A DNA stretch of 64,000 nucleotides from Candidatus Omnitrophica bacterium CG11_big_fil_rev_8_21_14_0_20_41_12. Lineage in GTDB: Bacteria; Omnitrophota; Gorgyraeia; Gygaellales; Profunditerraquicolaceae. Every line of letters begins with the position of its first letter. Position 1 is the first letter of the stretch. Below, one piece after another: positions 3,559-41,868 of this stretch. The position numbers and the translations under genes are program-made. Where the stretch lies: the NCBI GenBank assembly GCA_002796135.1, contig PCWB01000027.1, forward strand, positions 1,724 to 65,723, written 5' to 3'. The notes below the pieces were generated by a model. That model did no database searches, was not told the DNA's origin, and saw only the letters and a program-made list of their open reading frames with translations.

Positions 3559-3563
3559 TATCG

Positions 3564-5279: not shown

Positions 5280-5323
5280 AGATATTTAGGATATCAGCGC
5301 TAAAATACTTAAGTACTTTGCAG

Positions 5324-5770: not shown

Positions 5771-5789
5771 CGCTTAAACATTTTACTAT

Positions 5790-7211: not shown

Positions 7212-7283
7212 GTTATCTCCGTAATCTATTCCGAATACTGGAAAAACCAATTAATTTATCTAATAATTATATCCCGTAACTCA

Positions 7284-22756: not shown

Positions 22757-23611
22757 TTAAGCTCCCTGTCTGCCGGTAGGCAGGCTTTGCCCTAATTCAT
22801 CCGCTCGTTCTTTAGCTTTTTTCACTGCTTCATCCAGAGTCCCGCCTGCTTCTAATACTTCCAGGCCGGCTTGAGTAGTTCCTCCTTTTGAAGCAACCAT
22901 TTTGATTATATCTTCGCACGATAAATTCTTCTGGATCAACATAGCAATGATACCGTCAACAGTGCCTTGTGATAAAACCTTAGCCTCCCCACGGTCAAAA
23001 CCAAGATTCACCGCAGCATCGGCTAACATTTTAATAAACTCCTCCCGTTTATTTTGCGCATTAGCTTTAGCTTTGATATAATAGCAGAAAAAAGCCGGGC
23101 CGCTTCCTGAAATTGCCGTTGCGGCATTGATCATCTCTTCATTATCCACCGCCAACTCTAAACCGAAATAACTGAATATCTGCCAGGCTAATTGCCAGTC
23201 TGAATTAAACTCTAATGCGGTAGCATTTTTGCCCTTGAATAAAACAGATACTCCTTGATTGATTTGAGCCGGCATATTCGGCATAACCCTGATGATGCGT
23301 GTTTCTTCACCTAAGCGGCTCTTGATGTAGCCAGTAGTAATACCGGCGGCAATAGTAACGATTAATTTATCTTGCGTAAAAGACTTGATCTCATTTAGCA
23401 GAACATCAAAATCTTGCGGCTTGACCGCTAAAATAATAATTTCGGATTGTTTAACTAAATCAGCAGGATTATCGGCAACAGCTATATTTTTTAAGCCTGA
23501 GACTTTATTCTTATCTTTATCAAAAACACAGACCGTATAGTTCTCTCTTATGCGTTCTGCGATCGTCTTGCCCATATTTCCATAACCAATAATACCGATT
23601 TTTTCCATCAT
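22757..23611 (-). CDS. proC: Pyrroline-5-carboxylate reductase
   Basis: N-terminal Rossmann IGIIGYGNMGKTIA and the ProC C-terminal dimerisation domain. Confidence 0.85.
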   Translation of the reverse strand: MMEKIGIIGYGNMGKTIAERIRENYTVCVFDKDKNKVSGLKNIAVADNPADLVKQSEIIILAVKPQDFDVLLNEIKSFTQDKLIVTIAAGITTGYIKSRLGEETRIIRVMPNMPAQINQGVSVLFKGKNATALEFNSDWQLAWQIFSYFGLELAVDNEEMINAATAISGSGPAFFCYYIKAKANAQNKREEFIKMLADAAVNLGFDRGEAKVLSQGTVDGIIAMLIQKNLSCEDIIKMVASKGGTTQAGLEVLEAGGTLDEAVKKAKERADELGQSLPTGRQGA

Positions 23612-23672: not shown

Positions 23673-24347
23673 TTACTGGCGGGAAAATATCGCTCTACCT
23701 AACCTTATAATATCAGCGCCTTCTGCAATAGCCACCTCGAAATCATCGCTCATCCCCATCGAAAGCAGCCATTCAGAATTTAATTTATCACGCAATTGCC
23801 TAAGCTCTGAGAAATACGGTCGCGCTGCTTCAACGTCACTCACAATAGGAGCAATGGTCATTAAACCTTTGATTCTTACATTCTTTAGCTTTTTTATTTC
23901 TGACCAAACTTCAGATAAATCCTGCAAGGCAAATCCGGATTTTGAAGCTTCTCCTGAAGTTTTGATCTCTAAAAGAATACCCTGAACTTTATTGATCTTT
24001 AAAGCCTGCTTATTAATCTCTTGCGCCAAACTAACGCTATCAACAGAATGAATAAGATCGAATATCTTTACTGCCTCTTTTACTTTATTCGACTGCAGGT
24101 GGCCGATCATATGCCAAGTTACTCCGGATATCTGGCTATACTTTTCCAAGGCCTCCTGGACTCTGCTTTCGCCGATATGCTTTAAACCTAAACTAACAGC
24201 CTCTAAAATCTGAGCGACCGTCCTGCCCTTAGTCACACAAACTAACGTAACCTTATCAGGATCAGTCTTGACCTTCCCACAAACCTGTTCAATCCTGTGT
24301 TTAACTCTGCTTATGTTCTCTTTAATCATAGATAATATATTATACAC
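23673..24347 (-). CDS. yggS: YggS-family pyridoxal phosphate homeostasis protein
   Basis: Single-domain alanine-racemase-N-like fold with ...HIGESRVQE...HMIGHLQSNK.... Confidence 0.85.
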   Translation of the reverse strand: MYNILSMIKENISRVKHRIEQVCGKVKTDPDKVTLVCVTKGRTVAQILEAVSLGLKHIGESRVQEALEKYSQISGVTWHMIGHLQSNKVKEAVKIFDLIHSVDSVSLAQEINKQALKINKVQGILLEIKTSGEASKSGFALQDLSEVWSEIKKLKNVRIKGLMTIAPIVSDVEAARPYFSELRQLRDKLNSEWLLSMGMSDDFEVAIAEGADIIRLGRAIFSRQ

Positions 24348-24411
24348 AATAACCCACGAGGGTCAAATACATAAAAGAACAAAACGGTAAACGTTAATTC
24401 GAATTTTTGAA

Positions 24412-24894
24412 TTAATTAGTTTTTGGGGATTCAACGGTGAGTTTTTTATAAGCACCTTCTGTATCAGAATAAGCGTACATCCATACGCAACAATGTAGAA
24501 GCTTTCTTGCCTGAGAAAAAACCATTTTCCATTGGCCAAAGATCGGATTTTTAACTTTAAAATGTAATGCTTTTCCTAATCCTTCAAGCGGACCGGAAGC
24601 ACGCTTATAAGGATATAAATTACCTTTTGGATCTATCAATTTTACATCTACTAGCTCACAATCAACATACCAACCCACAAAATCATCTACATCATAGATT
24701 TCGAACGTTACAGTAACTATAGTGTTTGGTAATACGTCAAAAAACTCGGTAGCTCGGGTTTGGAACTCTTTATAATCTTTTGGAGGCTTATGTTCATTAT
24801 CTTCACCAAAAGAGACATAACATCCTGCCAGGATTAAAATTACTAATATAATAATTCCTTGTTTAATCATAAACTTTTGCTTTCTCTTTTCCAT
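24412..24894 (-). CDS. Putative lipoprotein of unknown function
   Basis: Signal peptide with lipobox LAGC (ILILAGCYVSF). No recognisable domain. It occupies the position where ftsZ would be expected. Confidence 0.5.
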   Translation of the reverse strand: MEKRKQKFMIKQGIIILVILILAGCYVSFGEDNEHKPPKDYKEFQTRATEFFDVLPNTIVTVTFEIYDVDDFVGWYVDCELVDVKLIDPKGNLYPYKRASGPLEGLGKALHFKVKNPIFGQWKMVFSQARKLLHCCVWMYAYSDTEGAYKKLTVESPKTN

Positions 24895-25000
24895 CCCTCT
24901 TCCTATTTTTTATTTCCTTTCCACTGCTTTCAGTACTATAAAAATACGTTGCTAATTTATATTACTATACCACAAATCCTAAGATTTTAAAAAATTAATA

Positions 25001-25200
25001 GCGTCTGGCTGGGCTGTGTTTTCGAGGGACGTGGAGGCAAGGAGCGGGCACGATTCACCGGCTATTGATACTCAATGAAAGCGACGCCAGCCGATCCGAG
25101 CGCAGTTACGGCACGCCGAGCCGTAACAAGCGTTCCCGAGAAAACACAGACAAAACAGATGCGTACACCCGGTGCTTAATGGTATTGCGCCGGTGTTCCG
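25001..25200. ncRNA. GC-rich, highly structured element of about 200 nt, a candidate small RNA (6S-like?). Identity and strand are unresolved.
   Basis: The segment is conspicuously GC-rich in an AT-rich genome and no ORF of 60 aa or more lies in the 318-bp gap. A long-range 18-bp closing stem pairs CTGTGTTTTCGAGGGACG (25014-25031) with CGTTCCCGAGAAAACACAG (25131-25149). There is an internal hairpin GTTACGG-N9-CCGTAAC (25105-25127) and a 3' hairpin CCGGTGC-N11-GCGCCGG (25169-25193). No tmRNA, RNase P or SRP signature motifs were found. Confidence 0.3.
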
Positions 25201-25212
25201 CAGGTGCGTAAA

Positions 25213-26466
25213 TTAAAAATATTCCTGATAAACTTCTTTGCAGCGGTTAATTACTTTGAAAAGCAGGTTCTTGGCGGGCTTTACTATTGCAAGATTTCCT
25301 ATTGTTTTACCTTCCAGGTCTTCACAGATCATTCCCAGACAGGTCAGATAAGTCAAATATTTCTGTCCGGATAGATCACTATTCTCTTTGGCTAACGCTG
25401 CAATCTCCGGATTATGGATCCTGCCGATACTTACGGGAATGCCCGTCACAGTCTCCATCATCTCAATAAATCCGTCAGTAAGCAGGGTTTTACCGACCAT
25501 AATAAAATTATCAACTTCATGCAATGCCACTTTTCTCTCCACAACCTCTTTAATCTGCGAACAGATCAGGCGTCCGAAGTTAGTGGCCATCTGCACTACT
25601 TCGCGCTGCCTGATCGGCTTATAAAATTCATCTTTCTTAACTAAAATTTCTTTATTTTCCGGAATACTGCTTGCATCCGCAATAATTCCATAGGAACGCT
25701 TGATATCTTCGGCCAGCTCAAAATTAATTTTCAATCCTTCGGAAAGCTGTTCGGTCATGCTGTTGCCGCCTAAGGGCAGGATCTGAATATCCTGCAGAAG
25801 TCCGTCTTTAAATATAAGCAACTCCGTAACATCGCTACCTACATCGCAAAATACGCTTAACCCTTTCTTTTCTTTACTACCCAGCACCGCCTTACTGGTA
25901 GCTAGCCCTGAAAAAGAAAGACTTCTGATTTCGCATCCGCATTGGCTTACAGCGCGGCTTAAACTTTGCAAAGAGGAAAGCCTAGCACAAACTAAATATA
26001 AATCTACCTCCAGCCTGTGGCTGTATAAACCGATCGGATTAATAACATTGCTTTTAGAATCTATAGAATAACTGGACGGAATCACATGAATTATTTCATC
26101 TTCTAAGCTTGAGCCCAGGATACGCGCCTGTTCATTAGCAGAGGCTATATCGGTTGAAGTAACTACTTTATTACCGCGCTCAGCAAGCGGAATAATCGCA
26201 TGGCTATGTTTAGTGGAGATATCTTTGCCGGAAAAATTAGTATGGATAAATTTTATCTTTAATCCGGATTTGGCCCGCAGGCTTTTGATGATCTTACCCA
26301 GACAAACAACCAGTTGCGTAGCGTCGACGATAACTCCTTCTTTTACTCCGCTAGAAGGCAGGCAATCAAAAAAGATATCCTCAATACGATTCTTCTTTAT
26401 TTTTGCCAATGAAGCAGAAATTTTATTTGAACCTATGTCAATTGCGCAGATATAATTATTTAGCAT
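25213..26466 (-). CDS. ftsA: Cell division protein FtsA (actin-like)
   Basis: ICAIDIGSNKISASLAK N-terminus, ...DVGSDVTELLIFKDG... and a C-terminal amphipathic tail. It overlaps ftsQ by 11 nt. Confidence 0.8.
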   Translation of the reverse strand: MLNNYICAIDIGSNKISASLAKIKKNRIEDIFFDCLPSSGVKEGVIVDATQLVVCLGKIIKSLRAKSGLKIKFIHTNFSGKDISTKHSHAIIPLAERGNKVVTSTDIASANEQARILGSSLEDEIIHVIPSSYSIDSKSNVINPIGLYSHRLEVDLYLVCARLSSLQSLSRAVSQCGCEIRSLSFSGLATSKAVLGSKEKKGLSVFCDVGSDVTELLIFKDGLLQDIQILPLGGNSMTEQLSEGLKINFELAEDIKRSYGIIADASSIPENKEILVKKDEFYKPIRQREVVQMATNFGRLICSQIKEVVERKVALHEVDNFIMVGKTLLTDGFIEMMETVTGIPVSIGRIHNPEIAALAKENSDLSGQKYLTYLTCLGMICEDLEGKTIGNLAIVKPAKNLLFKVINRCKEVYQEYF

Positions 26467-27244
26467 TATTTAGCTTAATTACCGCCTCCTTAAACCTTAA
26501 ATCAATATATTTAATATTTCCCCAATCCTTATGAGCCTGTATGACTAGTCCACCGAGAATCATCATCTTGCCTCTGATATTAGTCTCTCCGGTACGCACC
26601 TCGAACCCAGATCCCGGTAACGGAGCAGCTGGCTTTTTATAATCAACGATCAGCTTGGACAAAAGAACAAAAAAACCTGCGCTGGAAAGATCTCTCACAT
26701 CAACGCTTTTTAAAGTAAAATCACGAAATGATTTGTTGGCGTTAAATTCTTTTATAATACTTATGGCCAGATCAAGCTCCAGTCTCTTATATTTTGTCCC
26801 CGGCTTAGGAGCAAATATCTTTGTCTCTAAGCCATAGATTACCGGTAGCCCGGATTCCTCGTCAGTTGAATCCGAATAAAACAATACACCTTGCTCATCA
26901 ATTACAAAATTCCGATAGAATTTAACTAAGGCCAGCGGCTTGCGTTTTAAAAAATCAATGAATATACAATTGGGAAATACTCTGGTAAATCTTACTTTAC
27001 GGCAATCCGGGCACCCCGCAGCAACCTGGCGCGATTGGACGCCTAAATCTAAACTGAAAATATTCCTTCCCTTTAGATAATCAAATGACGCATCGGAATT
27101 TCTAACGATAACCTGCTTAACCGAAAAAAATTCCGAAGTCGTCAATACCTTCCAAATATATCCTATTAAAAAAGAGATAGCAAGTGAAATTATCGCCAGA
27201 GTAATAATAATTTTTACGGGTAGATTAAATCTTCTTTTTCTCAT
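26456..27244 (-). CDS. ftsQ: Cell division protein FtsQ/DivIB
   Basis: N-terminal TM helix and a POTRA-like region (FFSVKQVIVRN). Located at the ddl-ftsQ-ftsA position. Confidence 0.75.
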   Translation of the reverse strand: MRKRRFNLPVKIIITLAIISLAISFLIGYIWKVLTTSEFFSVKQVIVRNSDASFDYLKGRNIFSLDLGVQSRQVAAGCPDCRKVRFTRVFPNCIFIDFLKRKPLALVKFYRNFVIDEQGVLFYSDSTDEESGLPVIYGLETKIFAPKPGTKYKRLELDLAISIIKEFNANKSFRDFTLKSVDVRDLSSAGFFVLLSKLIVDYKKPAAPLPGSGFEVRTGETNIRGKMMILGGLVIQAHKDWGNIKYIDLRFKEAVIKLNNAK

Positions 27245-28169
27245 AAGCTAATTCCAATAATTTAATGCAAAGGTGGTTGAAATCTATGCCCGCAATCCTG
27301 GCGGCCTTAGGCAGAAGGCTGCTGGAGGTCATCCCTGGGATAGTATTAATCTCTAGAACATATGGACAATTATCTTTACTTAATATGATATCCGTACGCG
27401 AACAGCCAAAACAACCAAGAAGCCTGTGGGCTTCTCTAGCCGTCTGCTGAACTTTTCTAAAAATACTTTCCTCTAAATGGGCCGGAACAATATATTTGGT
27501 TAAAGCAGATTGATACTTTGCTTCAAAATCAAAAAACTTTCCTTCAGGCACGATTTCAATAACCGGCAAAGCCTCCTGCCCCAGGATCCCCACTGTAAGT
27601 TCCCGGCCGGATATAAACTCCTCAATTATTATACGTTCATCAAACTGAAAAGCAAGATCGATAGCCGCAAATATCTCTTCATTGCGCTCAATAAATGAAA
27701 TCCCGATACTTGAACCATGATTAGCCGGTTTGACTACTAAAGGCAGCCCTAGGTCATTTTTAAAAATTTTTGTTTTCTGATAATCCGTTTTATCGACAGC
27801 CCGAAATATAGGGACATCTAGTCCTCCGGCTTTTAATCTCTCCAGCGAGCCGATTTTATCCATTGCCAGCCGGCTGGCCGCAACCCCTGAAGCAGTATAG
27901 GGCAAATCCATCTTCTCCAGGATCTCCTGAATTACCCCATCCTCACCAAAGCGTCCGTGTAAAGCAATAAATGCTGCGTTTAAATTATTCTCTTTGAGCA
28001 GCTTGATATTCTCTTCCTGGTTATCCGTGGTTATTTCTATACCTACCGCCTCTACCCTTAAGCCTAATAACGCCGACAATACGGCTTGCCCGCTTTTCAA
28101 AGAGATCCCTCTCTCAGAAGAAGGACCTCCCATTAAAACTCCCACTCTACCAAAATCTTTTATTTCCAT
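27225..28169 (-). CDS. ddl: D-alanine-D-alanine ligase
   Basis: ATP-grasp fold beginning VGVLMGGPSSERGISLKSG. Confidence 0.9.
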   Translation of the reverse strand: MEIKDFGRVGVLMGGPSSERGISLKSGQAVLSALLGLRVEAVGIEITTDNQEENIKLLKENNLNAAFIALHGRFGEDGVIQEILEKMDLPYTASGVAASRLAMDKIGSLERLKAGGLDVPIFRAVDKTDYQKTKIFKNDLGLPLVVKPANHGSSIGISFIERNEEIFAAIDLAFQFDERIIIEEFISGRELTVGILGQEALPVIEIVPEGKFFDFEAKYQSALTKYIVPAHLEESIFRKVQQTAREAHRLLGCFGCSRTDIILSKDNCPYVLEINTIPGMTSSSLLPKAARIAGIDFNHLCIKLLELAYEKKKI

Positions 28170-29041
28170 ATTTTTATCTCAGGCTTAAGCTTAACTTTAA
28201 ACCTTGATTTAATTTTTTTCTGAATTAAATCCATAAGCGCTAAAACATCGCCGGATTTTGCTTGATGCGAATTTAAAATAAAATTAGCATGTGTCCTGGA
28301 AACCGATGCACCGCCTCTGGCTTTGCCCTTCAGTCCGCATTTATCAATCAGAGCCCCTGCCAAATTACGTCCCGGATTTTTAAAAATACATCCTGCGTTA
28401 GGAAGGCGGTGATCTTGAGTTTTGCTGCGTTTTAAAAGATAATCTTTTATCTTTTGCACAATCGAATTTCTATCTGCAGCTTGCAGCCTAAGTGTAGCGG
28501 AAATAATAACACACTTATCTAAATTGGATTTACGATAAGCAAATTTTAATTCTTTATAATTGATTATTCTGGGGATCCCGCGATAATCTAAAACATCTAC
28601 CTGCTTAACCAGCTTTCCGATCGATCTATCCCAGGCTCCGGCATTTCCCGCCAGTGCTCCTCCTAATGTGCCGGGAATCCCGGCGAGAAACTCTAATCCG
28701 GTTAATCCTTTTTTTTGAGCAAATAAGATCAGCTGGCTTAATTTTGAAGCACCTCCCGCTATTATACAAGTGCCTTGAGCGTGATTAGCCCTAAACACCT
28801 TGGCCGTTAATCTGATTACCAGCCCGTCTACTCCTGAATCGCTGACCAATACATTGCTCCCTGAGCCTAAAATAAAAACCTTGATACCGCTACGCCAAGC
28901 TAAAGCTAAGACCCGCTGTAAACTTTTAATATCCGCAGGCTCAAAGAAAAATTTTGCCGGCCCCCCGATCTTAAAGCTCGTAAGGTTGGCTAACTTAGTT
29001 TTAGTTTTTATTTTTTTACTTAAGTTTTTGGGCCAAAGCAT
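28160..29041 (-). CDS. murB: UDP-N-acetylenolpyruvoylglucosamine reductase
   Basis: FAD-binding ...LTSFKIGGPAKFF... and the MurB C-terminal domain. Confidence 0.85.
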   Translation of the reverse strand: MLWPKNLSKKIKTKTKLANLTSFKIGGPAKFFFEPADIKSLQRVLALAWRSGIKVFILGSGSNVLVSDSGVDGLVIRLTAKVFRANHAQGTCIIAGGASKLSQLILFAQKKGLTGLEFLAGIPGTLGGALAGNAGAWDRSIGKLVKQVDVLDYRGIPRIINYKELKFAYRKSNLDKCVIISATLRLQAADRNSIVQKIKDYLLKRSKTQDHRLPNAGCIFKNPGRNLAGALIDKCGLKGKARGGASVSRTHANFILNSHQAKSGDVLALMDLIQKKIKSRFKVKLKPEIKIWK

Positions 29042-30374
29042 CGCTTACCTTTACAATATCCCCTGCTCCCAGGGTAATCACCAGATCATCCTTGAGAATA
29101 ATACTTAAGAGATGCTCAAGAATATCCTCTTTAGGCAAATATAATACCGGTTTATTTTTTGTATATTCCTGTATTTTTTTCAATAAACTCTGCGCGCACA
29201 CCCCGTCTATCGGCTTTTCGCCTGCCGCATAAATATCCGTAATAATCAGATAATCCGCCAGGTCAAAAGATTTAGTAAATTCCTCTAAGAGTAACTGGGT
29301 GCGGCTATAACGATGCGGCTGAAAAACAACGATTTTACGTCCGGCATTCAAATTAGTAATCGCTTCAAGAGTAGCTTTGATCTCAGAAGGATGATGAGCA
29401 TAATCATCAATGATCAAATATTTATCATCTTTAAATTTTGTTTCTAATCTACGCCCGGCTCCCCTATACCCTGCTAAGGCCCTGCGTATACATTCTAAAT
29501 CAATACCCAGCTCTTCCCCCAGTCCGATTACCGCCAAAGCATTGGAAATATTATGCCTGCCTCCTAGAGCCAGATGAAAATGCCCGAGTAATTTATTTTT
29601 AAAGTAGCAATCAAAATTAGAGGATAAACCGGTAAATGAAATATTCTTAGCCTGGATATCAGCATTATCATTGAGGCCGAAAAATAAATGTTTTCCTTGA
29701 TAAGAGTTGGCCATTTTAAAAAGATGAGGATCATCTGAACAAGCTATAACAGTGCCTCCTTCTTTAGTGCGCCTGACAAAAGAATCAAATGCCGCTAATT
29801 CCCGCTTGAAATCATGATAATAATCTAAATGCTCCCGGTCAATATTAGTGATAATTGAATACTTGGGGCTATAGTTTAAAAATGACCCATCAGATTCATC
29901 GGCCTCGGCAACAAAAAATTCCCCGCTGCCTAAGCAGGCGTTGGCATTGATATTCTTAAGTATTCCGCCGATAACTACTGTAGGATTTAGCCCTGCCTCA
30001 AGCAACATGCAAGAAACCAGTGAAGTAGTCGTAGTTTTACCGTGGCTGCCGGCAATGGTTATCGCTGTCTTCTCCTGCATCAAGAGAGCCAAGACTTCTG
30101 CCCTTTTAATTAAGGGTAGGCCTAAAATTTGCGCTTGGCGCAATTCACAATTGTCTTTGTCTATTGCCGATGAATAAACTACTGCATCCTGGCCGTCTAT
30201 ATTCTGCGCATTGTGCCCGATGCATATCTTTGCTCCCAGACTTTTAAGTTCTTCGGTAATCTGATTACCCTTAAGATCCGAGCCGCTCACTTTAGAGCCG
30301 CCCTTAAGCAGTAGATGAGCAATCCCGCTCATCCCTATTCCGCCAATACCGATAAAATGATAATATTTTTTCAT
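29016..30374 (-). CDS. murC: UDP-N-acetylmuramate-L-alanine ligase
   Basis: MKKYYHFIGIGGIGMSGIA...GSHGKTTTT. Start placed at ATG 30374, which forms an ATGA overlap with the upstream peptidase gene; the ORF-track start at 30395 is 7 codons longer. Confidence 0.9.
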   Translation of the reverse strand: MKKYYHFIGIGGIGMSGIAHLLLKGGSKVSGSDLKGNQITEELKSLGAKICIGHNAQNIDGQDAVVYSSAIDKDNCELRQAQILGLPLIKRAEVLALLMQEKTAITIAGSHGKTTTTSLVSCMLLEAGLNPTVVIGGILKNINANACLGSGEFFVAEADESDGSFLNYSPKYSIITNIDREHLDYYHDFKRELAAFDSFVRRTKEGGTVIACSDDPHLFKMANSYQGKHLFFGLNDNADIQAKNISFTGLSSNFDCYFKNKLLGHFHLALGGRHNISNALAVIGLGEELGIDLECIRRALAGYRGAGRRLETKFKDDKYLIIDDYAHHPSEIKATLEAITNLNAGRKIVVFQPHRYSRTQLLLEEFTKSFDLADYLIITDIYAAGEKPIDGVCAQSLLKKIQEYTKNKPVLYLPKEDILEHLLSIILKDDLVITLGAGDIVKVSDALAQKLK

Positions 30375-31141
30375 CTTAAGATATAAGCCTTCCAACCTTC
30401 TTCAAAATTAGCCATATTGGAAAAGGAATATGCCTTGGATAATGCCGCCGCAAGATTCCGGCTGTCCCGCAGGCTCTGGCAGAAAAATACAAACTTACCT
30501 CTGCCGAATTCCGAAATTAAATATTTTACCAAACTATATGCTTCTGCATAAAATAATGCTGCCCTGGCTTTATCCTCAGACTTTGATAATCCCAACCTGC
30601 TTAAATCACCCAGTGAAATAAAATTCCCGCTCCTTATTCCTTCGGCTAACTTTGCTTTAACCGCATAAATATTTTCCCCTTGATAACTTGCCACCCCCTC
30701 CTCAAGCCAGAGAGGCACAGCAGGATTATTAAAACCAACCATCTCTCTAAAAATTATATGCGCCAATTCATGAGGAAGAATATTATTTAAAAATCCCGGA
30801 GCAGTCACAAAGGTCTTGATCAATTTATTTGCTACGGCGGCCTGCCCGGCTGACCAATCAGGAGCATCGGTGTCTTTACGGTAATCCTGCTGAGTATCAA
30901 ATATATAAATTCTTGCCCTCCTGTCCCAAGTCCAAAAATTAAAACGGTTAAAACCTAACTCATTGGTAATATTACTATAACAGCTCTCTGCAGCCTGGGC
31001 TAACCGCTCAACTGTGCTCTGCGGCGCCTCTTTATAATAAATAAAAAAATGCGTAGATTTCAACAGCTGCCAATCCCCCTTAGCCGCAAAGGCAACGATG
31101 GGGAAAAATAAAAATAATAATAAAAATCTGAATCGGCACAT
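30371..31141 (-). CDS. Secreted HExxH zinc metallopeptidase-like protein (Peptidase_MA-like), embedded in the dcw cluster
   Basis: Signal peptide, then HELAHIIF...LWLEEGVASYQ (HExxH with a downstream EGxA glutamate). It lies between murG and murC and is translationally coupled to murC. Confidence 0.6.
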   Translation of the reverse strand: MCRFRFLLLFLFFPIVAFAAKGDWQLLKSTHFFIYYKEAPQSTVERLAQAAESCYSNITNELGFNRFNFWTWDRRARIYIFDTQQDYRKDTDAPDWSAGQAAVANKLIKTFVTAPGFLNNILPHELAHIIFREMVGFNNPAVPLWLEEGVASYQGENIYAVKAKLAEGIRSGNFISLGDLSRLGLSKSEDKARAALFYAEAYSLVKYLISEFGRGKFVFFCQSLRDSRNLAAALSKAYSFSNMANFEEGWKAYILR

Positions 31142-32247
31142 TACTTTAAATTTAATACCTCTTTTGCCAATAAGAATGCGGCATCCGTAGAGATTTGCTG
31201 CCCATAAGCCTTGCGCATCGCTTTGAGTTTATCGGGATTCATTAAAAGATCATCTAATCTATCGGTTAAATTTTCAGCGGTCAACTCCTCATCTTTAATA
31301 ATCAAAGCGGCTTTAAGATCTTGCAGCACGCAGGCATTGGCTTTCTGATGAGCATATGCAAAAGGATAGGGAATCAGAATTGCCGGGATTGCGAATCTCT
31401 GTAATTCCGCAACGGTAGTGGCCCCGGCCCGGCAGATTATCAGATCCGCTACGCTATAAGCATATTGCATGGTTAAAAAAAATTCAAAAACTTTGCTCGT
31501 CAAATTCAAAGCGCGGTATTTTTTCTGCAGCGCCAGGAAATCCCCTGTTCCGGTAATGTGGATTATCTGAAAATTATCTTTTTTCTGCGATATAGATACT
31601 GCCTCGGAGCAAACAGTATTTAATCTGTGCGACCCCTGGCTGCCTCCGGTGATCAAAATGTTGAATTTCCCATCGGTAAAACCTAAAAAATCAAGCGCCT
31701 TTTTTCTGTCTATACGGATCAAATCCTGGCGCAGCGGGTTACCGGTGAAGATTATTTTTTTTGCGGATATATTCAAATATTTTTTCGTTTGGCTAAAAGA
31801 TACTGCCACCCGGTCCACCAGCTTAGCCAACAGGCGATTTGCCCTACCGGGGATGACATTCTGTTCATGAATTATGGTTTTTATTCTGAACAACCAGGCC
31901 CAGAACACTAAGGCCACCGTATTTAAGCTGCCGAATCCTACCACCACCTCGGGCCTGAACTTTATAACAATACGCAGGCTCTCCCAGGCACCTGACAAAA
32001 ACAAAAACACCCCTTTTATATTTTTACTATTTAAATTATAACTCAAATTAGATGCGGGAATATATTTAACTTGCACGGCCTCCACAACAATAAAACTATC
32101 TTGATTTTTTTTAGGCAGAACCAATAATAAATCATTAGCTGAATCTTTCAGTGAATCAATTAAAGCCAACGCCGGATAAATATGCCCGCCGCTTGAACCG
32201 GTAACGATCAAAATTCGCATCTTATGGATACTCTCCGCAACGTGCAA
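31141..32247 (-). CDS. murG: Undecaprenyldiphospho-muramoylpentapeptide beta-N-acetylglucosaminyltransferase
   Basis: GT28 fold with ILIVTGSSGGHIYPALAL. The true start may be the internal ATG at 32220 (MRILIVTG), 1 nt after the ftsW stop. Confidence 0.9.
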   Translation of the reverse strand: MHVAESIHKMRILIVTGSSGGHIYPALALIDSLKDSANDLLLVLPKKNQDSFIVVEAVQVKYIPASNLSYNLNSKNIKGVFLFLSGAWESLRIVIKFRPEVVVGFGSLNTVALVFWAWLFRIKTIIHEQNVIPGRANRLLAKLVDRVAVSFSQTKKYLNISAKKIIFTGNPLRQDLIRIDRKKALDFLGFTDGKFNILITGGSQGSHRLNTVCSEAVSISQKKDNFQIIHITGTGDFLALQKKYRALNLTSKVFEFFLTMQYAYSVADLIICRAGATTVAELQRFAIPAILIPYPFAYAHQKANACVLQDLKAALIIKDEELTAENLTDRLDDLLMNPDKLKAMRKAYGQQISTDAAFLLAKEVLNLK

Positions 32248-33316
32248 TATTAATCAAGATACCTAAACTAACCATATCAAATAACAACGAAGAACCGCCG
32301 TAACTAATAAATGGTAGCGGCAGGCCTTTAGTCGGAAACAATCCGCAAGAGACCCCGATATTGATAATCGCCTTAAGCGAGATCATTAAAACTAATCCCA
32401 AAGCAAGAAAATACCCGAATTTATCTTGGGCGTTTTTAATAATCTTGAGTCCTTGCTGAATAAAAATCATAAACAATATGATAACGCCCAATGTGCCGAT
32501 TAGCCCGAGTTCTTCCCCGATAATTGAAAAAATAAAATCAGTATGAGCAGCCGGCAAATAAAAAAGCTTCTGCTGTGAATGGCCCAGCCCCCTGCCAAAT
32601 ATCCCCCCTGAACCAATAGCGATCTGTGATTGAATAATCTGAAAACCGGTTCCCTTTGGATCAAGCCAGGGATTCAAAAAAGCCATAATCCTGGCTCTAC
32701 GGTACGGCACGCTAAATACTAAGAAATAAGCTGCCGGCAAACTACAAAGTATTAAACTCAAAATATAACTGCCGCGGGTTCCTGCGACAAAAAGCATAAT
32801 CAGAATCACGCTACCTAAAGCAACCACCGTACCCAGATCCGGCTGTATCAGTATTAATAAAGCTGTTGCACCCAATACGCATATCGGTGGAATAAACCCT
32901 TTAAAAAGAGACTTAATCTTATCCCCTTTACGGGCAATAAAATCAGCCATATAAATAATCAGCGCAAGATTGGCAAACTCTGAAGGCTGAAAACTGATAA
33001 ATTTAAATCTAAACCAACGCCTGGCTCCGGAGACCTCTCTACCTATACCGGGAATAAGCACTAAGACAAGCGCGACCAAAGCAATCCAAAGCATAAACCG
33101 GGCATGCTTCCTAAATAAACGGTAATCAAAAAACATCGTTAAAAAAGCCAGCAAAACGCCGACTGCCAAAAAAACTAAATGCCGCTTTAAAAAATAAAAA
33201 CTATCCCTGTATCTTTCCCAGGCATAAATACTTGAAGAGCTGTAAATCATTACTATGCCCACAGAGATAAGTATAACTGAAACAGTAAGCAAATTAATGC
33301 GCGTCTTTCTAACCAC
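32222..33316 (-). CDS. ftsW: Cell division SEDS protein FtsW (lipid II flippase/polymerase)
   Basis: FtsW/RodA family protein located between murD and murG. Confidence 0.85.
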   Translation of the reverse strand: MVRKTRINLLTVSVILISVGIVMIYSSSSIYAWERYRDSFYFLKRHLVFLAVGVLLAFLTMFFDYRLFRKHARFMLWIALVALVLVLIPGIGREVSGARRWFRFKFISFQPSEFANLALIIYMADFIARKGDKIKSLFKGFIPPICVLGATALLILIQPDLGTVVALGSVILIMLFVAGTRGSYILSLILCSLPAAYFLVFSVPYRRARIMAFLNPWLDPKGTGFQIIQSQIAIGSGGIFGRGLGHSQQKLFYLPAAHTDFIFSIIGEELGLIGTLGVIILFMIFIQQGLKIIKNAQDKFGYFLALGLVLMISLKAIINIGVSCGLFPTKGLPLPFISYGGSSLLFDMVSLGILINIARCGEYP

Positions 33317-34585
33317 CTAAACTTTCTCCCTTGCTAAATTCAACACGATTTTTTTAAAAGCCCTTCCCCTCTCTTCATAATCTGTGAACATATCATAACT
33401 TGAGCACATCGGAGAAAATAATACGGTATACCCCGGCTTAGCCAGAATAAAAGCTCTCTGCACAGCATCCTTTAACGTAGCGGCATTTTCGATCGTAAAT
33501 TTATTTTTCAGAGCAGTCGCTATCTCTCCTTGCGCCTCTCCAATCAGAATTATTTGTTTCACTTTATTTTTAGCCGGTTCAATAACAACCCGGTAATCGA
33601 TACCTTTATGCCTTCCCCCGGCAATAAAAATTATAGGAGTATTAATATTATTGATCGCCCAGGTTGCCGAATCCGCCGTAGTTGCCTTAGAATCATTAAT
33701 AAATTTTACTCCGTTAATATTACGCACTTCCTCTATACGGTGCTCAAGCCCCTTGAAGTCATTAAAAACTTTAAGCATAACCTCTGGATCTACCCCGAAA
33801 ATATTCCCTACGCTAAGCACCGCGCTTTGATTAGGATTTAAACCTTCCTGCTTACCAAAGTAAACTGCTTTTGAATTTACATTCTTGGCAATATCGCTAA
33901 GCAACGGATCATCCTTATTCAAAACCAGAAAATCATTATTATCCTGATTCATCGCAATACGCTTTTTAGCATCACCGTATTCCTGAATATCTTTATAACG
34001 ATCAAGATGATTAGAGGTTAAATTCAGAATGACGGCAACCTTAGGTTTAAAATCTTTAATTGTCTCCAGCTGAAATGAGCTTACCTCAAGAGCAACGAAA
34101 TCTGCCTCCTGCATCTTTTCTACTTCACCGCAAAAAGGATTACCGATATTACCACAGAGGAAAACATTTTTTCCGGATGCAGCCAGCACTTTTCCGATTA
34201 AGGTAGTAACTGTGGTTTTCCCGTTGGAACCGGTTACCGCAATAATCGTCGACGGACATAAGATACCGGCGATCTCAATCTCGCTGATCACCGGCTTATT
34301 AAATTCTCTGGCCCATCTAACCGGCTGAGTATCCAAAGCAACCCCGGGGGAAATAACGATCAAATCCGCATCTTTAATAAATTCTGGGCTATGTTTTCCC
34401 AGCTCAACTATAATATCCTTTGAACAAAGTTTAGCGCCTGCCTTCCTGGTCTGCGCATTATCTTGAATATCCGTAACCTTAACCTGAGACCCTAATCGAT
34501 ATAATAAATTCGCGCAAGCTACCCCTGAACGGGCAAGGCCGACAATTGTAATTTTTTTGTTTTTGAAGTACTTAATATTACGCAT
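33317..34585 (-). CDS. murD: UDP-N-acetylmuramoylalanine-D-glutamate ligase
   Basis: Mur ligase fold with GSNGKTT and a MurD-type N-terminus. Confidence 0.9.
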   Translation of the reverse strand: MRNIKYFKNKKITIVGLARSGVACANLLYRLGSQVKVTDIQDNAQTRKAGAKLCSKDIIVELGKHSPEFIKDADLIVISPGVALDTQPVRWAREFNKPVISEIEIAGILCPSTIIAVTGSNGKTTVTTLIGKVLAASGKNVFLCGNIGNPFCGEVEKMQEADFVALEVSSFQLETIKDFKPKVAVILNLTSNHLDRYKDIQEYGDAKKRIAMNQDNNDFLVLNKDDPLLSDIAKNVNSKAVYFGKQEGLNPNQSAVLSVGNIFGVDPEVMLKVFNDFKGLEHRIEEVRNINGVKFINDSKATTADSATWAINNINTPIIFIAGGRHKGIDYRVVIEPAKNKVKQIILIGEAQGEIATALKNKFTIENAATLKDAVQRAFILAKPGYTVLFSPMCSSYDMFTDYEERGRAFKKIVLNLAREKV

Positions 34586-34592
34586 GGACAGG

Positions 34593-35681
34593 TTATCTGA
34601 TCTTTAAAGTAACCAAAGTAAAGAGGGCAAGCAAACCGGCAATAATCCAAAATCTAACGATCACTTTATTTTCGGGCCAATTTAAAAATTGGAAATGATG
34701 ATGCAGCGGAGCAATCTTAAAAATACGTTTTTTTGTCAGCTTAAAACTTGCCACCTGCAATATAACTGAAAGCGCCTCCACAACAAATATGCCTCCGACA
34801 ATAATCAGCAGCAACTCTTTTTTAATTAATAACGCTACGGTTCCGATCGCCCCGCCTAAAGCCAGGGATCCGACATCCCCCATAAAGATTGAGGCAGGAT
34901 AACAGTTAAACCATAAAAAGCCTAAACCGGCTCCCACAATACTAGCGCAGAAAATAGCCAACTCCCCGCCTCCTTTGATATAAGGGATGAGCAGGTAGCT
35001 GCTTAAGTTAATGTTACCCGAGACATAACACAGTATGGAAAATGCAATCCCCACCATTACCACAATCCCGATCGCCAATCCATCTAAGCCATCAGTAAGA
35101 TTTACGGCATTCGATGAACCGGTAATCACCAATATTACAAATAAAATATATAAACCATCTAAATCAAGATTAATGCCTTTTAAAAAGGGAATCTCTAAGC
35201 CTGCTTTATGCCCGGCATCCGTAATCAGAATGATCCCCAATATCAAACCCAGAACAATCTGACTGGTAATTTTAATGCCGGAAGATAACCCGTTGGATTT
35301 TTTCTTTACCTGCTTTAAATAATCATCCATAAAGCCGGTTAATCCCAGCCAAATAGTGCTAAACAGAACAATCCAGATGCAGCGGTTAGAGATATCCGCC
35401 CAGAGCAAAGTTGAAATTGTAATCACCGCCAAAATCAGAATACCTCCCATCGTCGGCGTGCTCTGCTTATGCTTATGTAAATCATCCAGCTTAATACTGT
35501 CAGCCTTATTGATTTTCTCACCGATTTTTAAAGCTTTTAATTTTCTAATCAGCGGCGGGCCAAAAATCAAGCTTAAGATAAAAGCGGTTAAGGCAGCCAT
35601 GCTGGCGCGAAAAGTAATATAGCGGAATAGATTAAATGCGGAAATGAAATCTCTTAAAGGATAAAGCAGATGATAAAGCAT
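34593..35681 (-). CDS. mraY: Phospho-N-acetylmuramoyl-pentapeptide transferase
   Basis: Ten-TM MraY/WecA family protein containing ...DDYLKQ.... It shares 1 nt with the murF stop (TAATG). Confidence 0.9.
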   Translation of the reverse strand: MLYHLLYPLRDFISAFNLFRYITFRASMAALTAFILSLIFGPPLIRKLKALKIGEKINKADSIKLDDLHKHKQSTPTMGGILILAVITISTLLWADISNRCIWIVLFSTIWLGLTGFMDDYLKQVKKKSNGLSSGIKITSQIVLGLILGIILITDAGHKAGLEIPFLKGINLDLDGLYILFVILVITGSSNAVNLTDGLDGLAIGIVVMVGIAFSILCYVSGNINLSSYLLIPYIKGGGELAIFCASIVGAGLGFLWFNCYPASIFMGDVGSLALGGAIGTVALLIKKELLLIIVGGIFVVEALSVILQVASFKLTKKRIFKIAPLHHHFQFLNWPENKVIVRFWIIAGLLALFTLVTLKIR

Positions 35682-37042
35682 TAAATTTCTAAAACCTCTT
35701 CCATTTTCATCGACCGGGATCCTTTTACCAGAATCAGGTCATTTCTTCCCGGAGATATTTTGTTTAACAATAGGTCTTTTGCTTCTTGGGAATTCTGACA
35801 GCAGAATATGTCTTCCTTCTTAAATCCGCTTCCCTGGGCTGCCTCTGCGGTGAGCCTGGCTAAACTACCTACTGCCACCAGCAGATCACAGCTATTAGTT
35901 ATACTCCTTGCGATTTGCCTATGCAATAATTCTTTTTGTTCCCCTAACTCCAACATATCACCCATAATCAGGATCTTTTTGCCCCTGCACTTTGCGCTAT
36001 CTAAAGCAGAGAGCGCAGCTTTAAATGAAAAAGGATTGGAATTATAGGTATCATCAATGAATTTAAGCCCATTACGCACAATAAGATTAAGCCTTCCTTT
36101 GGGAAATTTAAAAGCCGCTAATCTTGATCCGATCTGCGCATAGCTAAAACCTAATATCCGTGCAACTGAAATTGCCCCTAAGGCATTATAAATATTATAA
36201 TATCCCAATGTTGACAGCATAAAATTAGATTCACGGTTAACTTTAAATTCCACCTTTCCATCCCCGACTTGAATAGCTGAAGCACAAAAATCACTTTTTT
36301 CATCGATCCCATAACTAAAAACACACCCTTCACGGTTTTTTTCAAACATGATCCGCCTGAGCAGTTTATCGTCGGCGCAAAGCACGGAAATTGCGGGTTT
36401 TTTCAGATTATCCAATAAGGTTGACTTTTCTTTTAATACTCCGTTTAAATTTTTCAAAAACTCCAGGTGGCTTGGAGCAATATTAGTAATTAATCCGATA
36501 TTGGGCCGGGCAATTTTAGCCAGATAATCAACCTCCCCAAAGTGATTGGTGCCGATCTCAACCACCGCAAAATTATCTTTCTCGGTAAGCTGGATCAATG
36601 TTTGCGGCAGGCCGATAGCATTATTCTTGGTCCCTTCATTCTTTAATACCCTGGCATTACCAGATAAGATCCAGGCAAGCATCTCCTTGGTGGTAGTTTT
36701 GCCGTTTGAGCCGGTAACAGCAATGATCGGCAAATTAAATTTTTCCCTCTGATACCCGGCGATATCCCCCAGAGCTAAAATCGTATCCTTAACCCTGATA
36801 ACTGCAATCTCTTTAGGAACCGCAAAATCCAGCTCTTTATCTACGATTAAACAGCCGGCTTTTGCTTTTAAAGCTTCATCAATAAAATCATGCCCGTCAA
36901 AATTAGTTCCTTTAAGCGCAAGAAACGCTTCCTGCGCAGTTAAGCTTCTTGAATCGGTAGAAATACCGCTTAGCTCATTCTTAAAGCTACCCTGAAGGAG
37001 CCTGCCGGATGCAGCTTTAATTATTTCATTAACTTTAAACAC
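35681..37042 (-). CDS. murF: UDP-N-acetylmuramoyl-tripeptide-D-alanyl-D-alanine ligase
   Basis: Mur ligase with GSNGKTTTKEM, in the murF position. Confidence 0.9.
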   Translation of the reverse strand: MFKVNEIIKAASGRLLQGSFKNELSGISTDSRSLTAQEAFLALKGTNFDGHDFIDEALKAKAGCLIVDKELDFAVPKEIAVIRVKDTILALGDIAGYQREKFNLPIIAVTGSNGKTTTKEMLAWILSGNARVLKNEGTKNNAIGLPQTLIQLTEKDNFAVVEIGTNHFGEVDYLAKIARPNIGLITNIAPSHLEFLKNLNGVLKEKSTLLDNLKKPAISVLCADDKLLRRIMFEKNREGCVFSYGIDEKSDFCASAIQVGDGKVEFKVNRESNFMLSTLGYYNIYNALGAISVARILGFSYAQIGSRLAAFKFPKGRLNLIVRNGLKFIDDTYNSNPFSFKAALSALDSAKCRGKKILIMGDMLELGEQKELLHRQIARSITNSCDLLVAVGSLARLTAEAAQGSGFKKEDIFCCQNSQEAKDLLLNKISPGRNDLILVKGSRSMKMEEVLEI

Positions 37043-38436
37043 TCTTGGGCTACCTTTCGATCGCTAAAATTCAAAACTTTATTCTTTAATATCTGATAGT
37101 TTTCATGGCCTTTACCTGCAATAAGCAGGCAGTCTTCTTTTTTTATCAAAGCTAAACCTTTGCGTATAGCTTGAGCGCGCTCAACGATTAAACAGTAGTT
37201 ATCCTTAACAATACCCGCACAGATATCATCAATAATCTGCCCAGGATTCTCACTACGCGGATTATCGCTGGTAAGGATCGCATAATCTGCCAATTCTGTA
37301 ACTATCTTGCCCATTTCCGGACGCTTTAACTTATCCCGCTCTCCTCCGCAACCAAAAACAACCACAATCCTACCTTTAACTAACGATCTCAAAGTACTAA
37401 TCACATTAAATAAAGCATCCGGAGTATGCGCATAATCTACAAAGACAGCGTACCCTTGCTTAGAGCTAATTCTTTCCAGCCTTCCGGGGACATTTTTAAA
37501 TTTCTCAATCGCAGATTTAATATCCGTAATCTTTAATCTCTCACTTATTCCCCAGGCAATTGCTGCCAGTATATTATAAATATTATACCGGCCGGTCAAA
37601 TTTGTCTTAATCCTAAGCTTTATTTTCGGAGCAATTAAAGTAAACTCAGTTGCCTGCATCCGGAAATCAATATCAGAGGCCATAACTGTAGAACGATTTT
37701 TAATTCCATAGGTTATGATTTTAGCCGGCGTTAATCTTTTGATCCGACAGGCGTATTTATCATCGTTATTGATTATCGCAACGCTTGAAGGCACTAGAGA
37801 TCCGAAGAGCTTGGCCTTAGCAGAAAAATAATTCTCTAAATTCTTATGGTAATCAAGATGGTCCTGGGTAAGATTAGTAAAAATAGCCCGGCTAAAATTA
37901 ATTCCGGCTACCCTATCCTGATCTAAGGCATGAGATGAAACCTCCAACGCACAATACTTAACTCTTCGGGCCAGCATTTGCGCAAGTAATTTTTGCAACT
38001 CCTCGGAGCCGGGGGTAGTATTCTTAGCTACGACAGTTTTGCCCGGAAAACGGTAATTGATCGTGCCGATAACTCCGCTTGATGCGCCGGATTCATTAGC
38101 TAAGGCCTCAATCAAATAAGCAATAGTCGTTTTTCCGTTGGTGCCGGTGATCCCGGCGATTTTAAGTTTATTTGATGCGGACCCGTAAAATTTACTTACT
38201 TCTTTTGCTAAAAATTCCCGGCAATCATTTACCAGAACTAATTTAATTTCTTGAGGGATTATAATTTTCACCGGCTTTTTTTCTACCACAACGGCGCTTG
38301 CACCATTAGCAATTGCTTCATTAATAAAGACGCTGCCATCCTGCCGGTTTCCCTTAATCGCCACAAAAACAAACCCCTTCCTCACTTTTTTAGAATCAGC
38401 AGTAATACCCTTAATTTCAATACCTGCGATTTTCAT
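37021..38436 (-). CDS. murE: UDP-N-acetylmuramoyl-L-alanyl-D-glutamate-2,6-diaminopimelate ligase
   Basis: Mur ligase with GTNGKTTIAYL and a DNPR-containing C-terminus. Confidence 0.9.
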   Translation of the reverse strand: MKIAGIEIKGITADSKKVRKGFVFVAIKGNRQDGSVFINEAIANGASAVVVEKKPVKIIIPQEIKLVLVNDCREFLAKEVSKFYGSASNKLKIAGITGTNGKTTIAYLIEALANESGASSGVIGTINYRFPGKTVVAKNTTPGSEELQKLLAQMLARRVKYCALEVSSHALDQDRVAGINFSRAIFTNLTQDHLDYHKNLENYFSAKAKLFGSLVPSSVAIINNDDKYACRIKRLTPAKIITYGIKNRSTVMASDIDFRMQATEFTLIAPKIKLRIKTNLTGRYNIYNILAAIAWGISERLKITDIKSAIEKFKNVPGRLERISSKQGYAVFVDYAHTPDALFNVISTLRSLVKGRIVVVFGCGGERDKLKRPEMGKIVTELADYAILTSDNPRSENPGQIIDDICAGIVKDNYCLIVERAQAIRKGLALIKKEDCLLIAGKGHENYQILKNKVLNFSDRKVAQECLKLMK

Positions 38437-40130: not shown

Positions 40131-40154
40131 TAAATTTTTTAGGAGTAATAAATA

Positions 40155-40523
40155 TTAGGGGTTAATTGTTTTTGCTTGAGCTTCGCGCTTTAAACTAAAG
40201 ATGTGCGCCAGCAAGCCTTCCCTGTTTTGATTCTCATCCGCAACCTTCAAACCATCCCTTGAAGAAACAAATTTAACAAAACGGTAATTATCCGGCATCT
40301 GGAAATCAGCGCTTTGATCGATGCGTTCGCCGATATTCACCAAAGAAGAACTTTTGTTAATATTATATCTTAAGGCGGTGTTTTTATCCAGTAATTCCGT
40401 GAATATTGCTTGTTTCTTCTGGCCTAAATAAGCCAGGCGGAAAATTTCACTCTGTTGATAGACATAGAGAACGGAAAACGAGGTGACAAATACAACTGCG
40501 GATAGGAATTTGGTAAGCTTCAT
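40155..40523 (-). CDS. ftsL: Cell division protein FtsL-like (small bitopic membrane protein)
   Basis: 122 aa with an N-terminal TM helix. Called only from its position between rsmH and ftsI. Confidence 0.55.
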   Translation of the reverse strand: MKLTKFLSAVVFVTSFSVLYVYQQSEIFRLAYLGQKKQAIFTELLDKNTALRYNINKSSSLVNIGERIDQSADFQMPDNYRFVKFVSSRDGLKVADENQNREGLLAHIFSLKREAQAKTINP

Positions 40524-40524
40524 C

Positions 40525-41430: not shown

Positions 41431-41868
41431 TTATACATCCATTAATTTTTCGGCAATTTCTTCAAAAGACTGACGGTTATTAGCGTAAAAATCCTGCCAT
41501 AAATTTTTAGCCCAGATCTCGATGCGGCTGGAAACCCCGACGATCATCACATCCTTTTTGATCTCGGCAAAATCTTTCAGGTATTGCGGCAGCAGGATCC
41601 TGCCCTGCTTATCAAAAGTTACATCTTGCGCCCCGCTAAAAAACATCCGGTTGAAAATACGCGGCTGCTGTTTAGTAAAAGACATGGATTTAAATTTATT
41701 TTCCTGAGAACGCCACTCCTCCTCAGAAAACATAAAAAGACATTTATCCAGGCCGCGGGTGACATAAAATTTTTCCACGAATTGGCTTTTGGCAACTTCG
41801 CGAAATTTAGCCGGCAAAATCAGCCTGCCCTTACGATCTATAGAATGTTCGAACTCACCATAAAACAT
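41431..41868 (-). CDS. mraZ: Transcriptional regulator MraZ
   Basis: Tandem MraZ domains (MFYGEFEHSIDRKGRLILPAKFR...). It is the first gene of the dcw cluster. Confidence 0.9.
   Translation of the reverse strand: MFYGEFEHSIDRKGRLILPAKFREVAKSQFVEKFYVTRGLDKCLFMFSEEEWRSQENKFKSMSFTKQQPRIFNRMFFSGAQDVTFDKQGRILLPQYLKDFAEIKKDVMIVGVSSRIEIWAKNLWQDFYANNRQSFEEIAEKLMDV

Follow-up and report, generated by a model that had tools for sequence, protein, structure and literature searches.

The gene cluster for division and cell wall synthesis (dcw cluster) of Candidatus Omnitrophica bacterium CG11_big_fil_rev_8_21_14_0_20_41_12 ends at ftsA, and ftsZ is missing from its canonical place behind it. This was observed in a 64,000-nt stretch of contig PCWB01000027.1 (hereafter the window), where ftsA is followed by a spacer, an open reading frame (ORF) for a predicted lipoprotein and the yggS-proC pair, so the initial annotation was right that the ftsA-ftsZ linkage is broken here. 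The account that we favor, with a probability of roughly 0.7, is that dcw clusters terminate at ftsA throughout the phylum Omnitrophota, that ftsZ was lost anciently, and that the DNA now lying at the junction results from a recent insertion of an orphan gene and one copy of a structured element, here called RNA1. According to this account, the dcw operon of the phylum would end at ftsA and be followed by a separate yggS-proC-PNP-ileS operon with its own promoter. An ancient ancestor would have lost ftsZ from the gap between these two operons, FtsA, FtsQ, FtsW, FtsI, FtsK, MreBCD and RodZ would be retained nonetheless, and a recent species-specific insertion would have brought in the orphan lipoprotein gene together with one RNA1 copy.

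The junction was compared among related genomes (loci are referred to below by labels such as L054). Taking one genome per species, an alignment of FtsA gave 46 Omnitrophota loci with FtsA identities of 53-90%, and ftsZ follows ftsA in none of them. In 33 of the 46 loci, yggS starts 23-650 nt past ftsA and is succeeded by proC and PNP; five contigs end just past ftsA, and the remaining loci have unrelated genes after ftsA. In L054, the closest relative found (FtsA 93% identical), the ftsA-yggS spacer is 55 nt long. An exhaustive representative search for deeper FtsA relatives, named Omnitrophota by their sources, added loci in which the order murG...ftsQ-ftsA is followed by yggS-proC-PNP-ileS (L183 and L182, FtsA 43 and 35% identical), one in which yggS follows ftsA (L180, 36%) and one in which lysS does (L181, 32%); the latter ORF had been considered as an ftsZ candidate and proved to be lysS. 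Altogether, ftsZ is missing next to ftsA from all of the about 55 Omnitrophota junctions examined, over FtsA identities of 32-100%, which sets them apart from the canonical ftsQ-ftsA-ftsZ end. The synteny of yggS-proC-PNP-ileS is conserved across Omnitrophota. Because ftsA abuts yggS in 33 of the 46 loci, in L054 and down to an FtsA identity of 35%, the ftsZ-less junction is ancient, and this dcw end, found throughout the diversity of the phylum that was sampled, is ancestral in Omnitrophota. In dcw regions of Gram-positive bacteria, ylmE/yggS lies downstream of ftsZ. The order mraZ...ddl-ftsQ-ftsA of the canonical cluster is kept, with yggS as the next conserved gene, as if ftsZ alone had been excised, and the flanks do resemble removal of ftsZ from between ftsA and yggS.

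Where the gene after ftsA is not yggS (L008, L019, L020, L037, L052; L036; L017; L009), the blocks include MarC, GlgC-like, GNAT, acyl-CoA dehydrogenase (ACAD) and ETF genes; the other post-ftsA genes are a TetR-OEP pair, a 1717-aa Ser/Thr-kinase/histidine-kinase fusion, a 131-aa orphan and a pilin. The 3' end of the dcw operon is a rearrangement hot spot in Omnitrophota.

The same comparison gives the direction of the insertion. The lipoprotein ORF (24412-24894, minus strand) was found in none of the related ftsA loci, and among 5.8 billion proteins its only homologues belong to its own 90% cluster; by these searches it is classed as a species-level orphan gene. A near-consensus sigma-70 promoter of the yggS operon (24339-24366, minus strand; TTGACC, 16-nt spacer, TATAAT; 11 of 12 consensus matches) is also present in the empty-site relative L054, whose 55-nt spacer is essentially this promoter. 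Since the lipoprotein has no homologue outside its species cluster and the promoter is common to the empty site, the insertion is recent, and the lipoprotein gene and the GC-rich element represent a species-level insertion into a junction that was already without ftsZ. In this way, the suggestion of the initial annotation that the two are the scar of a precise replacement of ftsZ does not hold, for relatives without the lipoprotein already lack ftsZ and the comparison with related genomes that it proposed showed ftsA abutting yggS directly in most loci. Nor is the GC-rich element special to this junction, as it is one copy of a dispersed family.

The 160-aa product of the ORF (PIQ90811.1, annotated as hypothetical) is predicted to be a lipoprotein from its N-terminus (MEKRKQKFMIKQGIIILVILILAGC), which is rich in K/R and continues into the lipobox LILAGC, in agreement with the motif [LVI][ASTVI][GAS]C. 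It has no match in Pfam or NCBIfam, and its AlphaFold model (mean pLDDT, the predicted local distance difference test score, of 49) is not usable.

For ftsZ itself, no tubulin signature was detected in six frames of the window, and tblastn with E. coli FtsZ gave zero matches there. The probe was verified: it matches PDB FtsZ over the full length and detects archaeal FtsZ at 1e-84. The Tubulin/FtsZ Pfam family was also not found in the approximately 12 kb past the window ends that a 102-kb ENA contig provides. With about 76 kb of this metagenome-assembled genome (MAG) inspected, ftsZ is most likely absent genome-wide, and we hold its true absence from this genome to be probable by a fair margin. 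Furthermore, tblastn did not find FtsZ in 1.33 Mb of mostly Omnitrophota contigs, which is weak evidence because the expected count is below one.

Published accounts are inconsistent on this point. Pende et al. (2021) named Omnitrophica together with Planctomycetes and Chlamydiae as phyla lacking FtsZ, and their supplementary table records FtsZ in one of five Omnitrophica genomes, OLB16 only (PMC8178401). FtsA without FtsZ was listed for Ca. Omnitrophus magneticus, RIFOXYB12_FULL_50_7 and WOR_2 SM23_29, and neither protein for GWA2_41_15 (PMC8178401). The same pattern was seen by Rivas-Marin et al. (2016), who left incomplete data open as its cause (PMC5147048). Division genes are not discussed in the main Omnitrophota genomics papers, and the supplementary files of a 2025 paper on the Planctomycetes-Verrucomicrobia-Chlamydiae (PVC) group contain zero Omnitrophota entries. 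The ftsZ-less dcw end of Omnitrophota was already known from a phylum survey, and contiguous synteny now gives it far firmer backing. Of the two possibilities raised in the initial annotation, a relocated ftsZ or a non-canonical division arrangement, the second is judged likelier, in line with the published FtsZ-less Omnitrophica genomes that keep FtsA.

Several points weigh against the loss of ftsZ, and together they make up the case for the strongest competing explanation, in which this genome and its relatives keep an intact ftsZ at another locus and divide canonically, the gene order being their one unusual feature. With about 76 kb visible, the gene could sit elsewhere in the genome. In OLB16, which is labelled Omnitrophica, FtsZ adjoins FtsA (PMC8178401), and on the basis of OLB16 two PVC reviews assign FtsZ to Omnitrophica (PMC5147048, PMC5945725). 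Omnitrophota are taken to be FtsZ-bearing or dcw-conserving in a 2017 review and in a 2025 study; the latter, whose phyletic profile used reference complete genomes only, groups Ca. Omnitrophota with phyla that highly conserve the dcw cluster. A conserved FtsA without its partner would also be unusual, as the other FtsZ-less PVC phyla lost FtsA too. FtsA normally tethers FtsZ, and for this reason the conserved FtsA counts in favor of an ftsZ elsewhere. The window protein scores 189.7 bits on TIGR01174, above the equivalog cut-off of 175.85, has matches to PF02491 (SHS2, 1C insert) and PF14450 (actin-like), and finds FtsA chains as its best PDB matches (e.g., 7q6g at 1.9e-30). Its C-terminal half aligns poorly with solved FtsA structures, subdomain 2B with the surface that binds the FtsZ tail included, and T. 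maritima FtsA was unmatched. Among relatives, FtsA is 77-93% identical, while in the same genomes FtsQ is 57-73% and ProC 39-65% identical, which indicates that FtsA is under strong constraint and not decaying. Against an intact ftsZ elsewhere stand the survey, with four of five Omnitrophica genomes lacking FtsZ and three of those four having FtsA (PMC8178401), the FtsZ-free contigs with the small weight given above, and parsimony: relocation of a single gene out of a conserved operon, in an arrangement kept down to 35% FtsA identity, would be less parsimonious than loss. We therefore regard an ftsZ gene elsewhere as possible, though rather unlikely.

The spacer between ftsA and the lipoprotein ORF (24895-25212, 318 nt) contains no ORF of at least 60 aa. 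A hidden small protein was considered and rejected, for the ORFs present are only 20-48 aa long and the covariation described below favors base pairing over coding. The segment had been described as non-coding and GC-rich over its 318 bp; it is non-coding, and its GC-rich part covers only about 215 nt (roughly 24999-25212; 56-59% GC, compared with 41% in the window), the other 100 nt or so having 23-29% GC. Read in the direction of transcription, the ftsA stop is followed by a short GC-rich hairpin (25165-25196, minus strand, identified from sequence and fold), which is specific to this species and missing in relatives. A weak terminator-like call at 25171-25156 covers part of it. Next comes the RNA1 copy of about 165 nt (24999-25164, minus strand), and directly past its closing stem a U-rich tail, UAUUAAUUUUUUAAAA (24983-24998, minus strand).

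The dcw transcript would read past the ftsA stop and the hairpin into RNA1, where the closing stem and the U run UAUUAAUUUUUU (24983-24998) would terminate it. As read from the sequence, the stem and U run probably act as the dcw terminator in this genome. The terminator scan passed over the U-rich tail after RNA1 on account of the overlong loop. Separate promoter-like sites would serve the lipoprotein ORF and the yggS operon. For the former, consensus matching gives a candidate promoter (24964-24991, minus strand; TTTAAA, 16-nt spacer, TATAGT, with TG) and a Shine-Dalgarno-like sequence, AGGAAGAGGG (24895-24904, minus strand).

RNA1 is an uncatalogued family of structured elements and a new result of this analysis. 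On the minus strand, 24999-25164 folds into a long closing stem around a multi-branch core (z -3.4), and covariance model R1, which was built from 14 RNA1 copies, matches the window copy on the minus strand with 139 bits (E 8.8e-37). A scan of metagenomes with a two-block pattern taken from the conserved core revealed that at least 119 contigs carry it; among the matches listed, R1 gave 112 in 100 of these at least 119 loci. In the RNA1 alignment 93.4% of the cells are paired, compared with 79.2% in shuffles and 34-49% with slid partners, 33 of the 44 base pairs have compensatory changes, and the covariation score is 0.318 vs. 0.097; no observed measure was reached by any of 500 shuffles. Having been fitted to the model, this alignment is biased toward the structure, but the same helices were recovered independently by MAFFT/RNAalifold from four and from thirteen copies.

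RNA1 folds into a three-way junction whose loops are invariant. The closing stem has about 19 bp and continues into covarying A/U pairs, and the element is bounded by this covarying stem (e.g., UUUUAGCGGG...CCCGCUAAAA) and not by fixed inverted repeats. Inside lie a hairpin with the conserved loop CCCAGCGUG and an irregular stem that comprises the two most conserved blocks, near-invariant G-U pairs and a variable hairpin cap. Because of the near-invariant G-U pairs the fold is strand-specific, and the L012 copy scores 114 bits on one strand vs. 17.9 on the other.

Known RNA families were searched for and rejected. In Rfam (4227 models), scans at the gathering thresholds and at E<=10 were empty for the window and 17 loci: 24800-25300 remained unmatched even at E<=10, and so did the relatives bearing RNA1 or the elements X and Y described below (17 loci). 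ARAGORN gave no tmRNA, and a tRNA or tmRNA identity was dropped; the sequence downstream of RNA1 had looked similar to tmRNA pseudoknot 1, a likeness that did not hold up.

RNA1 occurs in several copies per genome region and independently of orientation. One 6-kb contig has three copies (77-82% identical) and seven or more others have two; where a contig has more than one copy, these share 61-82% identity, with compensatory changes between them. The element is intergenic, with a median spacer of 391 nt among the matches listed, and in L059 its copies occupy spacers between co-directional genes in both orientations. A single-copy housekeeping RNA is ruled out by the several copies per contig and the unrelated contexts. 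No neighboring protein recurs above 8 of 118 loci among the matches listed, the recurring ones being housekeeping genes, and a conserved protein partner (transposase, reverse transcriptase or integrase), which was also considered, does not recur beside RNA1.

Near ftsA, all seven RNA1 copies within 640 kb of ftsA loci sit in the ftsA-yggS spacer, either directly after ftsA (L007, L055, L056, L037, L014) or reversed between ftsA and yggS (L012, L047). This shared spacer may be one of few insertion-tolerant gaps in compact loci, or it may reflect long residence. In the distant L182, the 512-nt ftsA-yggS spacer (L182:7282-7793; 48% GC vs. 41% in the locus) contains an RNA1-like core (nhmmer E 5e-4), which is enclosed by a closing stem that is long, AU-rich and unlike that of RNA1.

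Several size and arrangement variants of RNA1 were seen. Nested or partly duplicated ends are present in L080, L089, L106 and L123, and in L079, L086, L094, L095, L108, L132 and L165 about 50 nt are inserted behind the first hairpin, the insertion in L095 being flanked by the short direct repeat CTTCG. RNA1 is often followed (about 35 of 112 loci among the matches listed, e.g., L066, L135 and L160) by two other conserved elements, X (about 190 nt) and Y (about 215 nt), both GC-rich and hairpin-like. Coordinates listed for X/Y are L007:7473-7691, L012:7261-7474 (minus strand), L052:492-664 (minus strand) and L045:8192-8334. In some cases Y has X nested within it; the window contains neither of the two, and both are without an Rfam match. 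The RNA1+Y unit of L012 is inverted as a block relative to L007.

These properties fit a structured intergenic repeat family, and not a housekeeping RNA or a cis-regulatory element. RNA1 most likely spreads, or did so in the past, as a small mobile element without coding capacity, for which operon boundaries are the only tolerated sites. It resembles the REP/BIME, ERIC, BOX, Correia/NEMIS and MITE-like repeats, which are non-coding, structured, intergenic, 100-200 nt long and multi-copy, with a stem-loop or imperfect palindrome. RNA1 shares with these repeats the non-coding, multi-copy and intergenic character, the occurrence in either orientation, the modular ties (here to X and Y) and the size variants from internal insertions. 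It differs in that the examined loci showed neither a target-site duplication nor a transposase or RAYT partner. The copies within a contig have only 61-82% identity, not the near-identity expected of MITEs, and the fold is a three-way junction with strand-specific G-U pairs and unusually strong covariation. With Rfam RNAs such as 6S, SRP, RNase P, tmRNA and HEARO it has in common its size (about 165 nt), its GC-rich composition within AT-rich surroundings and the covarying helices, whereas it is multi-copy without a fixed context.

Other observations speak against a simple selfish repeat. The low identity between copies implies that there was no recent transposition burst, and neither a target-site duplication nor a transposase was found when filled and empty sites and the neighbors were inspected. 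A plain double-stranded repeat accounts less well for the strand-specific fold than a functional RNA or a strand-specific single-stranded DNA form would, and the seven copies plus L182 in the ftsA-yggS spacer might point to a gene that has resided there since an ancestor. A serious alternative is hence that RNA1 is a functional RNA or serves as a strand-specific substrate in single-stranded DNA. In its full form, RNA1 would be a family of trans-acting or otherwise functional non-coding RNA genes with their own expression, and the copy behind ftsA an ancestral resident and not a selfish element. The strong covariation with invariant internal loops, the conserved G-U pairs behind the strand-specific fold, the retention of structure by diverged paralogues on the same contig, the presence in the ftsA-yggS spacer of at least six lineages with a distant version in L182, and the frequent company of X and Y would all suit such genes. 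However, no -10 hexamer enrichment was found at any position upstream of RNA1, and a sigma-70 promoter of its own at a fixed distance was accordingly rejected as a candidate. RNA1 is missing from that spacer in most relatives, the closest included, it is inverted there in two loci, some copies look nested or partly duplicated, and its contexts are unrelated housekeeping genes. We consider the functional-gene explanation plausible enough to keep in view, at odds clearly below even.

A cis-acting role, as 3' untranslated region or terminator of the ftsA/dcw mRNA or as 5' leader of the lipoprotein gene, has little probability. The window copy is co-directional with ftsA and the lipoprotein ORF and has a U run after its closing stem. 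Across about 100 loci listed, however, the orientation of RNA1 to the flanking genes is random (35 same vs. 33 opposite for the upstream gene, 45 vs. 45 for the downstream one), RNA1 is antisense to both ftsA and yggS in L012 and L047, the U run is lacking in most other copies, and the lipoprotein gene occurs nowhere else. As a general function of RNA1, cis action is already contradicted.

Finally, an assembly gap or collapse at the junction, named in the initial annotation as a possible refutation, can be dismissed: related contigs L056, L014 and L055 do end within or just after RNA1, yet ENA, JGI and Logan supply six independent assemblies that run across the junction, all with this 318-nt spacer (99.7-100% identity), in agreement with the NCBI MAG, the window is free of N, and dozens of relatives run uninterrupted from ftsA to yggS. 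The exact window FtsA protein is present on 14 contigs. Among the RNA1 matches listed, the contig ends within the element or no more than 150 nt away in 34 of 128, which, with the three contigs just named, suggests that the element breaks metagenome assemblies.

The lineage has close parallels among the FtsZ-less PVC bacteria, Chlamydiota and Planctomycetota. It is likewise PVC-affiliated, dcw and peptidoglycan genes are kept with the canonical ftsZ place empty, and the mur genes, ftsW, ftsI, FtsK, MreB and RodZ are retained in the window. In Chlamydiae, components of the mreBCD/rodZ/ftsK type are implicated in FtsZ-independent division, a mode that has been investigated almost exclusively in Chlamydiae and Planctomycetes. 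Two differences stand out. Chlamydiota and Planctomycetota have lost ftsA too, whereas FtsA is present in the window and ranks with the best conserved proteins of its locus; and the dcw cluster of the window is intact and collinear, not fragmented, the absence of ftsZ here being judged from about 76 kb.

The window genes near the junction, all on the minus strand, were assigned by Pfam and NCBIfam. The order mraZ-rsmH-(ftsL position)-ftsI-murE-murF-mraY-murD-ftsW-murG-Peptidase_MA_2-murC-murB-ddl-ftsQ-ftsA was recovered and is collinear, bearing out the order given in the initial annotation, with ftsL by position only; precomputed Pfam results on identical contigs agree with the assignments of the upstream dcw genes. 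By Pfam, the upstream part from mraZ to ftsQ spans 26456-41868, with mraZ (also by NCBIfam) at 41431-41868, the Peptidase_MA_2 gene between murG and murC at 30371-31141 and ftsQ at 26456-27244. The 122-aa ORF at the ftsL position (40155-40523) has no Pfam match. The Peptidase_MA_2 gene is also in the dcw cluster of the distant L182 (FtsA 35% identical) and is missing from L183. ftsA, the final dcw gene, is located at 25213-26466 (SHS2_FTSA and FtsA Pfam domains, TIGR01174). Beyond the lipoprotein ORF lie yggS of the pyridoxal phosphate-binding YggS family (23673-24329; TIGR00044 at 175.7 bits, Ala_racemase_N) and proC for pyrroline-5-carboxylate reductase (22757-23611; P5CR_dimer, F420_oxidored), followed by a PNP_UDP_1 gene and ileS. 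A 218-aa gene call on identical contigs implies an ATG at 24329, which is probably the true yggS start. The window FtsA is 100% identical to PIQ90812.1 from the Candidatus Omnitrophica bacterium CG11_big_fil_rev MAG, whose neighboring gene encodes the lipoprotein PIQ90811.1.

The same window contains mreB-mreC-mreD-pbp2-rodA (9038-14351) and ftsK-rodZ (59436-62416), both on the minus strand, and most of the elongation and division machinery except ftsZ is concentrated here. An FMN riboswitch (55854-56080, minus strand, 90.4 bits) precedes ribBA (54595-55803), and its variable regions hold two unusually long insertions of 54 and 63 nt. The region 1843-7250 (minus strand) encodes two tandem PilB/T2SSE-type ATPases with MshEN (cyclic di-GMP-binding) domains, a stand-alone MshEN ORF and a GAF-GGDEF protein, with an HD-domain response regulator and a T2SSF gene as neighbors.

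About 55 contiguous junctions show that the absence of ftsZ from the canonical Omnitrophota locus is genuine and of ancient date; incomplete genomes do not explain it. This bears on a question that was open in 2016 (PMC5147048) and has been stated inconsistently in later papers. RNA1, X and Y are uncatalogued, strongly covarying elements. Groundwater and sediment metagenomes contain them in abundance, and they break assemblies and indicate which operon boundaries are prone to insertion. The chances are about even for a wider proposal, that this lineage and most of the phylum are FtsZ-free, with a divisome based on a strongly constrained, membrane-anchoring FtsA (together with FtsQ, FtsL, FtsW, FtsI and FtsK, the dcw operon being intact), and that RNA1, with X and Y, is a new class of functional RNA. 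If true, the former would be a third kind of FtsZ-independent division, unlike those of Chlamydiota and Planctomycetota, where FtsA was lost as well. With an FtsA that has been kept and is highly conserved, the phylum would offer a natural test case for what this protein does without FtsZ.

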